Virus genome (UHGV): UHGV-0011110
Length of the DNA: 42,827 nucleotides
Direction: 5' to 3' (one strand)
Source of the DNA: a virus
The translations under genes and the position numbers were made by a program. Positions 136 to 38,849 of this stretch are shown one piece after another; position 1 is the stretch's first letter; the number at the start of each line of letters is the position of its first letter. The notes under the pieces are model-generated. The model did no database searches, was not told the origin of the DNA, and saw nothing but the letters and a program-made list of their open reading frames with translations.

Positions 136-1119
136 GAAGAAAAACGCTCATTAGAGCCAAAAGGAGAAGAAAACAATATGGAAAAAGTAGTATTAGACGG
201 AAAAGAAATCGCTCAACCAGAAACAGAAGTTCGTGGATTTTTAAATTATGTTCGTTCACACAACTCTAAAATGGACTTACGTGCATTACCAGAAGGTGTC
301 AAATCAAGTGATGTAGGTGCTATTATCCCAGAGGATATTGTTACAAAAACAAAAATGTTACCTGAAACAGTGGTTGACTTACGTAACTTGGTTCAAACAG
401 TGAAAGTAAGCACTCCAACAGGTAAATACCCTATCTTGAAATCAACAGAAGCTGTAATGCATACTGTAGCAGAACTTGAAGCAAATCCAGACTTAGACAA
501 GCCACAATTTGAAAATGTATTGTATGATGTAGATACTTATCGTGGACAAATTCCAGTGTCTCGTGAATCTTTAGATGATTCTGATGAAGATTTGGGAGCA
601 TTAATTGCACGCCATATTCAACGCATTACGTTAAATACTGCTAATGCTAAAATTGTGGAGAACTTTAAAACTGCTGGAGCAGCAACGGTTAAAAATCTTG
701 ATGAAATTAAAACAATCATCAATACTCAATTTGACCCAGCGTATAACTTACAATTTGTAGTTTCTCAATCATTCTACAATGAAGTAGATTTAATGAAAGA
801 CAATGAAGGACGTTACATGTTACAACCTTCAATCACAGCGCAATCAGGCAAATCTTTACTTGGTTTAAACGTGACTGTATTGTCTGACAAGTTACTAGCT
901 GGAGAGGCTGAAAACAAAAAAGTAGCCTTCTTGGGAGACCCTGCAGGGTTTACATCATTCTTTGACCGTAATGAAATTGCAGTGCGTTGGCAAGAACATC
1001 AACATTATGGAGAAATTCTAGCAGCAGCTATGCGTTTTGACGTCAAATCAGTAGACGTAGATGCAGGTAAATTCTTAACTCTTGATACATCAGCACCAGT
1101 TGAAGTTCCAGGAGCATAA
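1..1119 (+). CDS. major capsid protein, HK97-fold; 3' 373 codons of a gene whose 5' end is at 42675..42827 (circular junction)
   Basis: Frame 1 is open from nt 1 (no stop) and is in frame with the ORF that runs off the 3' end of the window. Follows portal and prohead protease; RALPEG-containing HK97-like capsid core. N-terminal delta/scaffold-like coiled coil carries the EPEVK/ESEVK repeats. Confidence 0.8.
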   Translation, partial: EPEVKEPEVKEPEVKEPEVKEPEVKESEVKESEVKESEVKESEVKEEKRSLEPKGEENNMEKVVLDGKEIAQPETEVRGFLNYVRSHNSKMDLRALPEGVKSSDVGAIIPEDIVTKTKMLPETVVDLRNLVQTVKVSTPTGKYPILKSTEAVMHTVAELEANPDLDKPQFENVLYDVDTYRGQIPVSRESLDDSDEDLGALIARHIQRITLNTANAKIVENFKTAGAATVKNLDEIKTIINTQFDPAYNLQFVVSQSFYNEVDLMKDNEGRYMLQPSITAQSGKSLLGLNVTVLSDKLLAGEAENKKVAFLGDPAGFTSFFDRNEIAVRWQEHQHYGEILAAAMRFDVKSVDVDAGKFLTLDTSAPVEVPGA

Positions 1120-4254: not shown

Positions 4255-4484
4255 GTTGGGAGGAACATCTTGAAGCAATGGACAAAATGTACACAGAGTT
4301 GTTAGCTACTGAGAATGGTAACTGGTCTCTATCAGAGATAAACAACGCTGATTACAATTTATTAATGGAACTATTTACAGAACAAAATAAGCCAAAAAAA
4401 GAAAAGAAACAGGATGCAATGGATTTTTTCGCAACGTTCATGAGTCCAGCAGATTTAGCAAAAGCAAAAGGAACGGCACTTTAG
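4224..4484 (+). CDS. T extension of the G-T chaperone fusion, reached by -1 frameshift at A_AAA_AAG (4224..4230)
   Basis: Canonical heptamer A AAA AAG in the G frame. The -1 frame is open from 4224 into ORF 4278..4484 with no stop. Confidence 0.6.
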   Translation, partial: KKGEKDLSKISWEEHLEAMDKMYTELLATENGNWSLSEINNADYNLLMELFTEQNKPKKEKKQDAMDFFATFMSPADLAKAKGTAL

Positions 4485-4551
4485 GTAAACCTAAGGTGTC
4501 TTTTTTTATGCTATAATAGGTGTAGAAATACATTGAAGGAGTGAAAAATTA

Positions 4552-9018: not shown

Positions 9019-9092
9019 AAGAATAAGGGGGCTTGTATAGCTCCCTTTTTTATGCTATAATACATGTATAGAACTTTAAAGGAGAGATAATC

Positions 9093-12000: not shown

Positions 12001-12227
12001 TCTTTAACAACGTTAAAAACATTTTTCAAGATGGAGATAATGTCACTATAGATGTGGAAGAACGTGCAATTTACATTAATGGGGCAATTAATAATGAGCT
12101 AAATGTCGTTGGTAATGAATGGGAACAATTTAGACTTGGGTTAGGCACTACAATCATTCAACCAGTTGTATCCAGTTGGGCGCATCCAGCTAACGTTAAC
12201 GTAACATTCAGACAGTCATATTTATAG
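9093..12227 (+). CDS. distal tail protein (Dit) with long C-terminal carbohydrate-binding-like extensions ('evolved Dit')
   Basis: Position right after the tape measure; Dit-like N-terminal ~250 aa; 1044 aa total. Confidence 0.6.
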   Translation: MAEKYEFLRTFTFDGNETKHLFQIAKVNIPFLSKDNEYYTVGNTDGKHFRSTRLGDYSLSIDGFVIKDNTGKSVSDSLDELKVLLNSDEPKQLIFDVFPDRYFSAIFSGVQEYDATNLDYTPLTLVFDVPDGLAHSIEPIGFSNTYSNTTNLMLDSEYNATYKYMKPWVEKLDEKFNNSNVVQGDFRTGIPLNFERDDKTDERWLNWNPATTIHTADLKKGDEVNFSVYAQVVFIDEENNKDYAGQVILEEWDTVKGAILKRHIVYIPKQVTTQFTEYGSVVKIENEKTNAINLQYGFRGSNLIKWSKPMISFLPPLGEIVTAPSVGAKAYSNSLEFGDYDYSGNPNLMSVIKASDFKTEVDSNVQISDVDYNSIRLASQGTELTPFAAYTPGSVSSLVSGKTYTISAKVKIEEGTTGNIDKLRIAYRKTLGGTILLSANTTGVEVGKEIIIKGTGVVNYNITDLSRFYLSIGTEAGSKMNGSVIVSDIKIEEGSTTTPYQPNLLDAPYYLSKVPLGENLIKPESQQPVTNSNYLIKTYNTKPMIKGKKYTITLEGTKPATQVFRAFFTQAIGNSWSSGDLKPVEGLANTWSVTFTAAADSHPTKPEAMIYQVPNTSLGQCTIKWLKLEEGDTRTPNIPYYKYEGIAPAPSNNPKDYHWGYSPSYINAVEYVPSGDSIDDLIKIENNGTYKAYPQINFTMNGENGLVAVLNENGNVLQFGNPEDVDGTVATRLDMGLKENFWGNKLPTNITINSGFDSVVPNFNNNPATPNLFDGGFDMTTYVDAIRPTFSQVTKEVWHGPSMLLPITAPTNNDRTGSFGVHTRFYFRNINKGERGRLEFAVNDETGANAMTFIVRDSSITNTEIVLEMWYKKKKLNQVSLDRKVFKKDFFEINMERTGKQLTWRFVQINSLNKYDNVIVDKQYKFTWNLESDDATKFTSTGVWFMRYGNTPHNPMYVTDTQVKWYNTPFFNNVKNIFQDGDNVTIDVEERAIYINGAINNELNVVGNEWEQFRLGLGTTIIQPVVSSWAHPANVNVTFRQSYL

Positions 12228-12290
12228 AAAAAAGGGCTTGTAAAGCCCTTTTTTCTATGTTATAATGTAATAAGAAAGGAGAGGTGATAC

Positions 12291-23227: not shown

Positions 23228-23491
23228 TTATTCTTCCTCCCTTAATTTGTAAATTAATTTCTCAACGATATTTAAATGTCCTATGATTGCTTGCTGTTCT
23301 GTTTTATAGCGTTCTGCGAACTCTTCAAGTTCGCTATAGTCATGAATCTTATAGTCACATGCGTTAAAAATCATGGTTTCAAATCCTGCATACGGCACTA
23401 AATTACTTCCTAAGTCCACAGTACTTACACAGTACTGATTTTCATTAATATCTACGAAAGTTTTTAGTTTTACTCCATATTGGTATTTCAT
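23228..23491 (-). CDS. hypothetical small protein (paralog)
   Basis: MKYQYGVKLKTF.. start. Confidence 0.4.
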   Translation of the reverse strand: MKYQYGVKLKTFVDINENQYCVSTVDLGSNLVPYAGFETMIFNACDYKIHDYSELEEFAERYKTEQQAIIGHLNIVEKLIYKLREEE

Positions 23492-24290: not shown

Positions 24291-24764
24291 TTATACTAAT
24301 TTATTTCTATCTGCGTATGACGCTCCTTCAAGTTCCCAGAGTTCTCTACCAAGCTTATTAGCGGTAAGATAATCCTTTTTATCGCAAGCATTATTAATCT
24401 TAATAATAAGCTCATGTCGTTTAGGTTCAACACGTTTGCGTGCAGGGCGTGAAACACGTTCTTGTGATTCTTTTGGATTGATTGCATACCCAAGGTTAGT
24501 CCAGTGATTGTTTTGCACGTTACCATCCTTATAATACACATAGCTGCAATTATGTGGGTTGTATACAAACATTTCAGCAACCAGTGGGGCTATATAAAAC
24601 TTACGTGACTTTCTATGTGATCCATTTAGTACTACAAATTGTTTACCTGTCTTGTAGTCAATCTCTTCTGTTACATATTTACCTGAGTCAATATCCATAA
24701 CATGTCCTTCATTTGTAATAGAGTACTTATCATATGGTGGTGAAAGTTGTTCAAATTTAAGCAT
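24291..24764 (-). CDS. NUMOD4-containing HNH-like protein (degenerate HNH; first His replaced)
   Basis: N-terminal YxIxNxGxV pattern; APLVAEMFV.NP..., NNHWTNL. Confidence 0.45.
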   Translation of the reverse strand: MLKFEQLSPPYDKYSITNEGHVMDIDSGKYVTEEIDYKTGKQFVVLNGSHRKSRKFYIAPLVAEMFVYNPHNCSYVYYKDGNVQNNHWTNLGYAINPKESQERVSRPARKRVEPKRHELIIKINNACDKKDYLTANKLGRELWELEGASYADRNKLV

Positions 24765-25185
24765 TGTTTTTTTCCTCCAGTTTGATTAGTTGATCTACAT
24801 ATACTTTCACTTTCTTCAAATCTTCAATTCCATTTTTTTGTTTATATCTATGTGTATACTTATAAATGTTCGCTTTATAGAAGCCACGTAATTCATCATA
24901 AGTTAGTAAGTCATCTTCCAATACATTAAAGAGCTGTTTACCTGAGTTGGTTTTGTAGCGTTTTGTGTTCTGTAGTTCTTCAGAGTCATTACTATCCACT
25001 ACTTTCTCAAAGCGTGACGCCAGATAGTCTAGCGTGCCATTTTTCAAGCCCACATACGTGTCATTCAGCTTGTGATCATACTCAACGCTTGCGATTTCAT
25101 ATAATTCACCAATCTTTAGACTATGCTTTCTACCATTATTATCTACACATCGTACCTTATCTCCAATTTTAAACATTTTTATCAA
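24757..25185 (-). CDS. hypothetical protein (DUF3310-like C-terminus)
   Basis: FYKANIYKYTHRYKQKNG.EDLKKV.VYVDQLIK. Confidence 0.4.
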   Translation of the reverse strand: MIKMFKIGDKVRCVDNNGRKHSLKIGELYEIASVEYDHKLNDTYVGLKNGTLDYLASRFEKVVDSNDSEELQNTKRYKTNSGKQLFNVLEDDLLTYDELRGFYKANIYKYTHRYKQKNGIEDLKKVKVYVDQLIKLEEKNNA

Positions 25186-25208
25186 ATCCTCTCTTTGTTT
25201 ATATATCT

Positions 25209-25237
25209 ATATTATCATATAGTATGTTGATTGTCAA
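25209..25237 (-). promoter_or_regulatory. promoter TTGACA-17-TAATAT for gene 24757..25185
   Basis: Read on the minus strand. Confidence 0.5.
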
Positions 25238-25255
25238 CACTTTTGTTTAATTTTA

Positions 25256-25330
25256 TGCTATAATATATTTATGGAAGTACTCCTCCACTTCCTCCTCTCG
25301 AAAGACTAGCCAATTGACTAGTCTTTTTTA
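25256..25330 (+). ncRNA. putative ~58-nt small RNA: orphan rightward extended -10 promoter (TGCTATAAT 25256..25264), CCUCC-rich hairpin, then intrinsic terminator (25302..25330)
   Basis: The promoter is identical to the late-type promoters. GGAAGT/ACTTCC hairpin, two CCUCC anti-SD motifs, then an 8-bp perfect stem plus T6. There is no ORF, and it is antisense to the early genes. Confidence 0.35.
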
Positions 25331-25540
25331 ATTATATAATCTCAATTCGCTCATATACTCTAATACACTTCTAGCATCTCTGAATTGTTCATCATACTTA
25401 TCATTCCAAATATCAGTAGGGTCAACAACACTTACTTCCCAGACCCCATTATCAATATCACGCCAAACGCAAACCTCTAATCCATTTGGTAGTTCTCCTT
25501 CAAATACAAGTATTAAGTTGTTTTCATATTCATCATACAT
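25328..25540 (-). CDS. hypothetical protein
   Basis: ORF immediately downstream of an HNH gene. Confidence 0.4.
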   Translation of the reverse strand: MYDEYENNLILVFEGELPNGLEVCVWRDIDNGVWEVSVVDPTDIWNDKYDEQFRDARSVLEYMSELRLYN

Positions 25541-25542
25541 TA

Positions 25543-26052
25543 TTAGTCCTCCTTATATTTAAAAGTATATCCTCCAACATGGTTACGTCTACCTTTAAGT
25601 AATTCACAAATTCCACCTGTTGATAATCCTAACAATCGTCCTGCTTCAGATAGACTACTATACGTATTGCCATTTGAACATATTATAGGTTTACTACGTG
25701 ACGTTTTACTTCTTTTAATACCTGTACCATGTTGTATATTATCAATATGTGATACCCATTCCAAATTGTTTATAGAATTATTAGCTTTGTTTTCATCAAT
25801 ATGGTTAACATCACTTAAATTTAGTTCATTATTTATGAAGTGTTTTGCCACTAATCGATGAACCCTGTAACATTTTCTTCCTCTTGAATTAACAACATTA
25901 ATATAATAATATCCACTAGTTTTATTCTTAAATGGTTTTAAAAGTCTATTTGTTTTAATATTTTTTATCCTACCTAAACTGCTCACTTGATAATTTGGGA
26001 AATCCTTAATCGTCCGCCATTCTTCGCAACTCGCGTTTTCTAACTGATTCAT
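25543..26052 (-). CDS. NUMOD4/HNH_3 homing endonuclease
   Basis: HRLVAKHFI.N......VNHIDENKANNSINNLEWVS. Confidence 0.75.
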   Translation of the reverse strand: MNQLENASCEEWRTIKDFPNYQVSSLGRIKNIKTNRLLKPFKNKTSGYYYINVVNSRGRKCYRVHRLVAKHFINNELNLSDVNHIDENKANNSINNLEWVSHIDNIQHGTGIKRSKTSRSKPIICSNGNTYSSLSEAGRLLGLSTGGICELLKGRRNHVGGYTFKYKED

Positions 26053-26975: not shown

Positions 26976-27004
26976 AGTATAGCATGGTTAGCTATACTTG
27001 TCAA
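26976..27004 (-). promoter_or_regulatory. early promoter TTGACA-17-TGcTATACT embedded in the 3' end of the helicase gene
   Basis: Read directly; overlaps the last codons of 26988..28301. Confidence 0.65.
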
Positions 27005-30286: not shown

Positions 30287-30496
30287 TTAAACCACCCTCA
30301 CTATTCTAACTTGTTTTAGTGTATATCCTCGTGATTTATAACATTCACCCAACTTCTTTATGCTATAGTAATCTATAGGTATATCATACATGTGTCTTAC
30401 CCATTCTCCTTTATCGTTCAAGACTTCTATTGCATAGATATGATTTTTGTCTTTAAATCCAGTGTGCATCTTAATATCCTCCTTTAGAAAGCCCAT
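30287..30496 (-). CDS. hypothetical protein
   Basis: ORF. Confidence 0.35.
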   Translation of the reverse strand: MGFLKEDIKMHTGFKDKNHIYAIEVLNDKGEWVRHMYDIPIDYYSIKKLGECYKSRGYTLKQVRIVRVV

Positions 30497-35300: not shown

Positions 35301-35329
35301 GTATAGCACGTTTAGAGACCATGGTCAAC
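35301..35329 (-). promoter_or_regulatory. early promoter TTGACC-17-TGcTATACT plus conserved leader
   Basis: Read directly. Confidence 0.7.
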
Positions 35330-38625: not shown

Positions 38626-38804
38626 CCTACACAAAAATAAAGAGTTGTGGTATAATAAAGATTGAACAATCGTGGACGGCGCACGTAAACGACCGCTCGC
38701 CACAGTATCTGGCTGATGTGTGATAGTATACCCTACTTGACGACATGCACACTAAAGTGGATATATACTTAACGTAGGGCGTGTATATTCGCAGATACTA
38801 ACCT

Positions 38805-38836
38805 CCCACTAGTCTAGCTAACTAGTGGGTATTTTT
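38805..38836 (+). terminator. rho-independent terminator immediately before the terL promoter
   Basis: CCCACTAG/CTAGTGGG stem, 8-nt loop, TATTTTT. Confidence 0.65.
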
Positions 38837-38849
38837 ATGCTATAATATA
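38837..38849 (+). promoter_or_regulatory. late-type promoter TTTTTATGCTATAAT
   Basis: Same T-run plus TGcTATAAT found at 4506, 9047, 12251 (variant TGtTATAAT), 25256 and ~3877. Confidence 0.5.

Follow-up and report, generated by a model that had tools for sequence, protein, structure and literature searches.

A predicted small RNA gene with an invariant anti-Shine-Dalgarno loop in siphophages of Enterococcus

The DNA analysed here, called the window below, is the complete 42,827-nucleotide (nt) stretch of the virus genome UHGV-0011110, a 42.8-kb Enterococcus siphophage genome. Inside its leftward (minus-strand) replication module we find a rightward unit composed of a promoter, a hairpin and an intrinsic terminator, and we consider it likely, from its conservation pattern, that this locus, present in a single copy, is a real and expressed small RNA gene. 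The loop of the hairpin contains UUCCUCC, which is the exact complement of GGAGGAA, and GGAGGAA is present in 44-63% of the ribosome-binding sites of the opposite-strand replication genes versus 7-14% of those of the structural-strand genes. The best overall explanation that we can offer, and which we hold tentatively, is that of a phage small RNA pairing with the GGAGGAA-type Shine-Dalgarno (SD) sites of leftward mRNAs. Our confidence is nested: it is highest for the RNA gene, lower for an action through CCUCC:SD pairing, which we consider probable, and lower again for the phage's own leftward mRNAs being the main targets, which we put forward as a possibility worth serious attention. The locus had been singled out in an earlier inspection of the sequence, referred to hereafter as the original prediction.

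Conservation and covariation of the module

Scans of the window alone were of limited help: they returned 68 promoter-like sites for 57 expected and 8 terminator-like sites for 3 expected, which is barely above what shuffled sequences give, so that little can be concluded from a single sequence and a comparison was needed to decide. It is because of conservation and covariation that the element rises above chance. The module was found in 121 phage records, all of them from Enterococcus. The nearest GenBank relatives of the window, phages of E. faecium and E. faecalis (KEN18/20/21, dArtagnan, Aramis, RG1, DELF1, Bp29, IME-EFm1 and BUCT630), are 83-88% identical to it over about half of its sequence, and the Efquatrovirus phages of E. 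faecalis, such as EFap02, are more distant relatives. The module was present in 16 of the 16 GenBank relatives inspected, downstream of the gene for a 70-amino-acid (aa) protein and divergent from the next leftward gene, and position and orientation were the same in every relative examined, whether retrieved by BLAST or by a pattern scan of IMG/VR. What the original prediction had described as a promoter, hairpin and terminator that do not follow the orientation of the surrounding genes is thus, in all relatives examined, a conserved non-coding unit opposite to its neighbours.

IMG/VR and GenBank together yielded 46 distinct promoter-plus-RNA sequences and 29 distinct transcripts. When folded singly, all 29 transcripts gave a hairpin with a 7-9-nt loop ending in UCCUCC, then a linker, then a terminator hairpin with a U-run. 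The first hairpin (hairpin 1) exists with at least nine stems, among them GGAAGU/ACUUCC, AGGGA/UCCCU, AGGGAGA/UCUUCCU, AUGCUG/CAGCAU, AUGGUA/UACCAU, AAGGUG/CACCUU and AGGGUA/UACCCU, with an extra outer helix in some variants, and five unrelated terminator sequences occur among the relatives; within the transcript, no block other than the loop core UCCUCC is invariant. Since stems and terminators are replaced while the loop stays fixed, selection appears to act on the loop sequence itself and not on shape alone. The original idea that CCUCC is the functional core of the RNA gains from this invariance across the stem variants.

In the ungapped class with 8-nt loops, 92.3% of the alignment cells are paired and 10 of 11 pairs have changed on both sides; slid controls gave 34-45% of paired cells and none of 500 shuffles reached the observed value. 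The inner stem of hairpin 1 is 100% paired, with compensatory changes in five of its six pairs. A covariance model was built from 24 sequences, and the alignment based on it takes in 25 members, with 91% of the cells paired and compensatory changes in 14 of 16 pairs (again, 0 of 500 shuffles reached the observed value); the terminator part of this alignment is 98% paired, and 8 of its 10 pairs show compensatory changes. Folding and a covariation search in related phages, which the original prediction had named as a check, thus returned a shared fold, strong covariation and a UCCUCC that is kept throughout.

The covariance model has one strong match per complete genome and a sole strong match in the window, where a search for a paralogue or a second copy likewise came back with just one CCUCC-in-loop hairpin followed by a terminator. 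No match at E <= 0.1 was found in Rfam 15 (RsaE, RNAIII, csRNA and phage small RNAs included) for four loci representing types A-D, and the window gave chance-level Rfam matches alone, with E above 1. None of the matching phage records annotates the RNA, the record of phage 9184 having a plus-strand terminator annotated at the equivalent spot, and full-text literature searches found no description of the element.

Anatomy, strand and promoter class

The features of the locus are collected in Table 1. The promoter matches TRTGnTATAAT, the Gram-positive -16/-10 (extended -10) consensus, exactly at 25254-25264 (+); the exact motif of the original prediction holds, with its start moved by one base (25251-25264, not from 25252). 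We infer that the RNA starts at about 25270-25272 and has its 3' end within the T6 run. The GGAAGU/ACUUCC hairpin is as had been proposed, with a loop of 8 nt, not 7; the intrinsic terminator with its T6 run is also there, its stem consisting of nine Watson-Crick pairs and one G.U around an 8-nt loop and its T6 ending at 25329, where an 8-bp stem and an end at 25330 had been given. The 60-nt transcript has a minimum free energy of -17.9 kcal/mol (z = -4.56; 0 of 200 shuffles equal it), and the hairpin-1 loop and the linker are unpaired in the minimum-energy fold and in the centroid fold alike. The two CCUCC motifs that had been announced lie at 25282-25286 and 25291-25295 of the window; the second one, in the tail, is not a general feature, since it is present in the types from E. 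faecium phages and absent from the Efquatrovirus types. As to the stretch around this second motif, UUCCUCCUCUC is the linker of the window phage and its E. faecium-phage relatives, and CCUCCUCUCG is kept in the type A and type B relatives. The window terminator has a C.A mismatch (25310/25317), which widens its loop from 4 to 8 nt and would be a U.G pair on the minus strand; DELF1 and the type B relatives have T-A or C-G at this place.

Table 1. Coordinates of the predicted small RNA, its flanks and other sequences discussed in the text
Feature	Position	Strand	Remarks
Leftward promoter of the DUF3310 gene operon	25209..25237	-	-35 TTGACA 25237..25232, 17-nt spacer, TG-extended -10 TAATAT 25214..25209; 10/12 matches
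-35-like box AACACT (relatives: AACACA)	25236..25241	+	17 bp upstream of the plus-strand -10
Extended -10 promoter TTTTATGCTATAAT (14-mer)	25251..25264	+	exact match
Predicted small RNA, ~58-60 nt	25270..25329	+	covariance-model match, 65.8 bits, E = 5.7e-17
Hairpin 1	25273..25292	+	by folding; GGAAGU 25273-25278 / ACUUCC 25287-25292, 8-nt loop ACUCCUCC 25279-25286
Linker/tail UCCUCUCG after hairpin 1		+	unpaired in predicted fold
Second anti-SD stretch UUCCUCCUCUCG	25289..25300	+	spans hairpin-1 3' arm and single-stranded linker; complement of (C)GAGAGGAGGAA
Intrinsic terminator	25300..25329	+	by sequence scan; stem 25300-25309 / 25318-25327, loop CCAATTGA, T6 25324-25329
DUF3310 protein gene	24757-25176	-	next gene leftward of the RNA locus
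70-aa protein gene	25328-25540	-	no Pfam match
Terminator-promoter modules	4480-4517, 9020-9061, 12225-12266, 38800-38846	+	
Leader cassette gene starts	window 17450, 21170, 35269; IME-EFm1 38343, 37994, 32472; EFap02 5817, 6376, 19107	- in window	
Early leader sequence CAUAAGUUAAGAGGAGGAAUUACAAUG			leftward class, versus the late leader of AAAGGAG type
Unrelated-group loci	L082 5066-5163 (+); L062 2093-2190; L071		same strand as neighbours, between 390-aa and 70-aa genes

The assignment to the plus strand draws on several observations. In a BLAST-derived alignment of 16 relatives, TATGnTATAAT is invariant while its n takes all four bases, and all five terminator types have a T-run on the plus strand and no U-tract on the minus strand. 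The Efquatrovirus variants need G.U pairs that are specific to the plus-strand RNA (-25/-27 kcal/mol, versus -13/-17 kcal/mol for the complement), but for the window and the type B variants it is the minus-strand RNA that folds slightly better, so that the strand test by G.U pairs and folding energy is mixed. One may ask, then, whether the locus is an RNA gene at all. The hairpins could be DNA-level signals or signals in a minus-strand RNA, and the promoter-like box incidental. They could, for instance, terminate or process leftward transcripts, be what remains of a ribosome-binding region, bind a protein, or serve single-strand initiation next to the prim-pol and helicase genes. Such a signal would be compatible with compensatory changes, which keep the hairpin on both strands, with the energies of the window and type B variants, with the location in the replication module and with the presence of GGAGGAA, the early ribosome-binding motif, in the minus-strand copy. 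However, it would not account for a promoter motif standing at a fixed distance in every relative, for five unrelated terminators that all have plus-strand T-runs, or for the Efquatrovirus pairs that exist in the plus-strand RNA only, and we hold it to be very unlikely. As a real ribosome-binding site the minus-strand GGAGGAA was rejected, no start codon following it in any type; type D has a mere two-codon UUG-CUA-UAA there.

The original prediction stated that no open reading frame (ORF) lies between promoter and terminator, which is not strictly correct: a 12-codon plus-strand ORF runs from ATG 25271 to TAG 25309 and would give the peptide MEVLLHFLLSKD. No SD precedes it, and most relatives lack the start codon and have AUAGGG... 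instead. The 11-codon minus-strand ORF that had been mentioned is present in the window as well and is devoid of a start codon in most relatives. Among the relatives compared, no conserved ORF was found on either strand, and both small peptides were rejected on this ground. A function as a 30S sponge, which had been proposed in view of the two CCUCC motifs, does not stand either. The 16S anti-SD, which pairs with the SD, carries CCUCC itself, and the RNA's CCUCC, being identical to it, is unable to pair with the 16S 3' end. Sponge and peptide are hardly credible.

In the window, the plus strand carries the structural, lysis and packaging genes (~1-16.4 kb and 35.7-42.8 kb) and the minus strand the replication and small accessory genes (~16.5-35.3 kb), and the two strands use different promoters. 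Leftward promoters have the form TTGACA-17-TGnTATACT and are followed by a conserved short leader, TAATTCATAAGTTAAGAGGAGGAA (e.g. minus-strand positions 35308, 26984, 21208 and 17488). Rightward promoters come in two forms: nACACA-17-T(A/G)TGnTATAAT, with a non-canonical -35-like ACACA box (3204, 3877, 35728, 37333, 38648 and 42633 on the plus strand), or a terminator hairpin whose T-run continues directly into TTTTATGnTATAAT. The same split exists in IME-EFm1 and EFap02, which suggests that the leftward and rightward programmes are differentially recognised, perhaps by a phage factor. The small-RNA promoter falls into the rightward class because of its AACAC(A/T) box at 17 bp and its TTTTATG prefix. 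Exact copies of the 14-mer also occur at 4504, 9048 and 38833 (+), and a copy with two mismatches at 12253, each of them 30-45 nt upstream of a large plus-strand ORF: 4552 (1488 aa), 9093 (1044 aa), 38879 (591 aa) and 12291, respectively. Up to two mismatches being allowed, the window contains nine matches for 1.74 expected, and 0 of 100 shuffles reach nine. With the promoter class of the structural strand, to which the original prediction had rightly assigned it, the element shares both the 14-mer and the -35-like ACACA box at 17 bp.

Three side observations concern these promoters. The TTTTATGnTATAAT promoters of the structural and packaging operons are fused to an upstream intrinsic-terminator hairpin, e.g. 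AAGGGGGCTTGTATAGCTCCCTT-TTTTATGCTATAAT, the T-run of which provides the TTTT of the motif; such terminator-promoter modules punctuate the late operon before TMP, the 1044-aa and 467-aa tail genes and terL. After several leftward promoters there is a near-identical leader cassette, TAATTCATAAG(T/A)TAA(A)GAGGAGGAA(T)T..ATG, which precedes unrelated small genes and looks like a portable promoter-leader unit. Another plus-strand promoter-like box, CTTTATGCTATAGT, lies at 30356-30369 inside the minus-strand block, with neither hairpin nor terminator after it, and could be an antisense promoter.

The element is located in a 142-nt spacer (25186-25327) flanked by two minus-strand genes, and upstream of the 70-aa gene are those of a NUMOD4/HNH homing endonuclease and a Prim-Pol/PriCT primase-polymerase. 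The minus-strand TTGACA-17-TAATAT promoter that had been reported exists, with a TG extension, and its -35 is kept as part of GTCAACAC in all relatives. As the plus-strand -35-like box overlaps the leftward TTGACA by 2 nt, the two promoters stand back to back. The RNA overlaps an opposite-strand gene just at the stop codon of the 70-aa gene (25328-25330), with which the terminator T-run overlaps; the rest of it lies in the spacer and would be transcribed leftward through read-through alone. Between the 70-aa gene and the next one there is no intrinsic terminator on the minus strand, where UUUCGAGAGG follows the hairpin, so that leftward read-through is plausible, and the strong leftward promoter at 26984 feeds an operon that runs into the locus.

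This layout (overlapping -35 boxes, T-run on a stop codon, incoming leftward operon) would also suit an action in cis, in which the RNA, or its mere transcription, affects leftward read-through from the operon of the prim-pol, HNH and 70-aa genes. The two transcripts could form a ~58-bp fully paired duplex, for example an RNase III substrate, or RNA polymerases could collide or occlude one another at the back-to-back promoters; as an outcome, the upstream and downstream leftward operons would be uncoupled or tuned. However, a cis-antisense RNA is complementary to its target whatever its sequence, which leaves unexplained both the invariance of UCCUCC amid replaced stems, linkers and terminators and the match of the motif to the leftward class of ribosome-binding sites. 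We consider an action in cis rather unlikely as the main explanation, and it is compatible with a small RNA that works in trans.

The gene just leftward of the RNA locus and other neighbours (24291-24764 and 25543-26052 of the window) are mosaic among the relatives, with DUF3310, HNH/NUMOD homing endonucleases and other ORFs, amid which the promoter-RNA module keeps a fixed place; in several phages it has homing endonucleases on both sides.

GGAGGAA ribosome-binding sites as candidate targets

GGAGGAA was counted in ribosome-binding regions defined by our own gene calls for the window and by the depositors' annotated starts for IME-EFm1 and EFap02. In the window it is present in 17 of 39 minus-strand sites versus 3 of 27 plus-strand sites (p = 0.006); the opposite-strand and same-strand figures, relative to the RNA gene, are 18/40 versus 3/30 in IME-EFm1 (p = 0.0016), 20/38 versus 2/22 in EFap02 (p = 0.0008) and 265/581 versus 8/59 in the IMG/VR loci (p = 7e-7), where the motif is 7-9 nt from the start codon. 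The enrichment in opposite-strand sites is thus 3-6 fold. GGAGGAA is the top or joint-top 7-mer of the leftward sites, rightward sites favouring AAAGGAG or AGGAGGT. The statement of the original prediction that nearly every gene of this phage uses a GGAGG-type SD goes too far, the figure being 40 of the 66 ribosome-binding regions called. Pairing with the SDs of mRNAs, the other mode of action that it contemplated, turns out to be the best supported one, through this strand bias.

Complementarity beyond the motif points in the same direction. Opposite-strand sites have longer maximal complements to the RNA of the phage itself (Mann-Whitney p = 1e-4 to 7e-4), and the two strands do not differ in their predicted pairing to the 16S 3' tail. 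When all ribosome-binding regions of the three complete genomes are ranked, the best complements to the RNA are almost all on the strand opposite the RNA gene. The window has perfect complements of at least 10 nt at nine sites, eight of which are on the minus strand. These eight span 10-12 nt, e.g. AGAGGAGGAAGU at the gene start 35024 and AGAGGAGGAAG at 23491, and include the leader cassette AAGAGGAGGAA (17450, 21170 and 35269); in the window, the linker thus extends the reach of the RNA. No single target region stands out in the ranking. The divergent neighbour DUF3310 was considered as a privileged target and rejected, its duplex energy being about the median in 30 loci and ranking 52nd of 66 in the window.

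Enterococcus mRNAs are another conceivable target. The anti-SD loop might be aimed at the host, either to dampen translation in general or to act on one particular host or defence gene. Its invariance across phages of E. faecalis, E. faecium, E. gallinarum and E. hirae is what a conserved host target would produce, and host sites do exist: GGAGGAA occurs in 6 of 45 ribosome-binding regions (~13%) of the E. faecalis plasmid pTEF1, which was our host comparison sample. Moreover, host mRNAs are the targets of many of the phage small RNAs known (PMC12197685). But leftward phage sites contain the motif 3-4 times as often as this plasmid sample or the rightward genes, and a host-directed function seems unlikely to us.

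If the phage's own leftward mRNAs are the targets, a simple scheme can be proposed. The RNA would be transcribed rightward from its TG-extended, -35-poor -10 promoter of the structural-strand class, would stop at its own intrinsic terminator and would, in this way, be co-regulated with the rightward programme. Its first hairpin would show (U)UCCUCC in the loop, followed by the linker and the terminator hairpin, and these exposed pyrimidine motifs could pair with the GGAGGAA-type SD regions that are the hallmark of the leftward replication-module genes. In competition with ribosomes for the mRNA, pairing would block 30S binding and might also destabilise the leftward mRNAs, and rightward genes with AAAGGAG-type sites would be spared. 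As a net effect, the rightward programme would cross-regulate the leftward one by turning down its translation. One may push the scheme further and imagine a class-specific silencer, an RNA that reads the GGAGGAA dialect, as opposed to AAAGGAG, and shuts about 17-20 leftward genes together in a programmed early-to-late, strand-to-strand switch; at this point we regard this extension as speculative and doubtful.

Several points weigh against the leftward mRNAs as targets. Since CCUCC pairs with any strong SD, complementarity alone is weak evidence of specificity. The enrichment of GGAGGAA could have another cause, such as the duplicated leader cassette or translation efficiency, and the compared genomes are related, so that the p-values given above overstate independence. 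The advantage of a phage's own RNA over the RNAs of other phages is weak: complements of at least 10 nt number 9 with the own RNA versus 1 and 5 with those of the others in the window, 3 versus 7 and 6 in IME-EFm1, and 7 versus 2 and 2 in EFap02. The tail UCCUCUC can pair over 7 nt with the DUF3310 SD, AGAGAGGA, and this adjacent gene is not favoured. As to timing, late expression, as foreseen in the original prediction, is one possibility, but promoters of this class are also found ahead of small rightward genes at 35.7-37 kb with the look of early genes. To these must be added the slightly better minus-strand folding of the window and type B variants mentioned above. On the other hand, we have not counted as evidence that AGA-GGAGGAA leaders are commoner in the clades whose RNA has the extension CCUCCUCU (13/32 and 35/150, versus 13/149), because this amounts to one phylogenetic contrast.

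Relation to other RNAs and significance

Sequences with CCUCC in other settings were met during the searches. An unrelated group of metagenomic phages has a similar architecture: a TATGnTATAAT promoter, an ACAGAG/CUCUGU hairpin with UUCCUCC in its loop GUUUCCUCCUUUA, and a strong terminator with U7. It scores 21 bits against the Enterococcus model, which makes it a case of analogy, not homology, and it may reflect convergence. In the locus L089 (~802-881, minus strand of the locus), UUCCUCCUAG in a 5' leader pairs with the downstream SD CUAGGAGGAA just before an AUG, which gives a cis anti-SD sequestering hairpin, a different use of the CCUCC motif. Finally, the members of a large family of metagenomic phage contigs (L061, L063, L064, L067, L069, L073-L078, L080, L081, L083-L087 and L090) share TATGTTATAAT-(5 nt)-AUGACUUUGUAAUUCCUCC without a hairpin; their CCUCC may simply be the complement of the SD of a divergent gene, and they are unrelated to the Enterococcus element.

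Firmicutes possess several C-rich small RNAs that target SDs: the S. aureus RNAIII hairpins and Rsa RNAs, with UCCC loops, RsaE/RoxS, Listeria LhrC, and the streptococcal csRNAs, with anti-SD and anti-AUG stretches. What they have in common with the Enterococcus phage element is a promoter and a terminator of their own, independence from Hfq, and an unpaired C-rich motif, in a loop or a linker, complementary to GGAGG-type sites. The element differs in being encoded by virulent phages, in its much shorter length of ~58 nt and in having a full UUCCUCC instead of UCCC or CCCC; no variant of it has an Rfam match, and there is neither sequence nor structure homology to these RNAs.

In phages, the sar RNA of P22, the OOP RNA of lambda and the c4 RNA of P1/P7 are antisense RNAs that occlude ribosome-binding sites. 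The c4 RNA is mentioned in PMC12197685. These three resemble the element as short structured phage RNAs with their own promoter within genes that are oppositely oriented or regulated, and by a proposed action near ribosome-binding sites. However, they come from temperate phages, where each governs immunity or lysogeny by way of a single specific target, encoded largely in cis, whereas the element is found in strictly lytic-type siphophages, overlaps no ribosome-binding region in cis and has about 17-20 matching sites per genome.

A closer parallel in logic is found in T4, where the RegB endoribonuclease, which recognises GGAG, and the translational repressor RegA inactivate a class of early mRNAs through a feature of their ribosome-binding sites. 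As proposed here, one temporal or strand class of mRNAs would likewise be recognised and shut down and the others spared; the agents are proteins in T4 and would be a base-pairing RNA here, so that we infer a functional analogy and no homology. In the lytic Kayvirus phage K, RNA-seq has revealed the non-coding RNAs snc001-007, some of which are intergenic and antisense to their neighbours and whose functions are untested (PMC9241854). It was their expression that brought those RNAs to light, with no conserved motif or structure, whereas the Enterococcus element, known from sequence alone, is recognised by its conservation, its covariation and an invariant motif; the two are unrelated in sequence.

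As judged from these comparisons, the element qualifies as a new RNA family among SD-targeting and phage regulatory small RNAs, homologous to none of the systems compared. To our knowledge, hardly any work exists on regulatory RNAs in Gram-positive phages that are strictly lytic. A 2025 review of phage small RNAs mentions no case from Enterococcus or from any Gram-positive phage (PMC12197685). The present work points to an unannotated element in about 120 sequenced Enterococcus phages, many of which are candidates for therapy, and provides a concrete hypothesis of how two divergent gene programmes might be coordinated, by means of one 58-nt RNA, an invariant 7-nt motif and defined GGAGGAA leaders. 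If it is true, this would be a rare case of a small RNA directed at ribosome-binding sites as a class and not at individual mRNAs, and it would constitute a compact, portable and Hfq-independent module of translational repression for low-GC bacteria. If class-wide silencing is true as well, the element would be an RNA-only equivalent of T4 RegB/RegA, in phages that are widely used for Enterococcus therapy.

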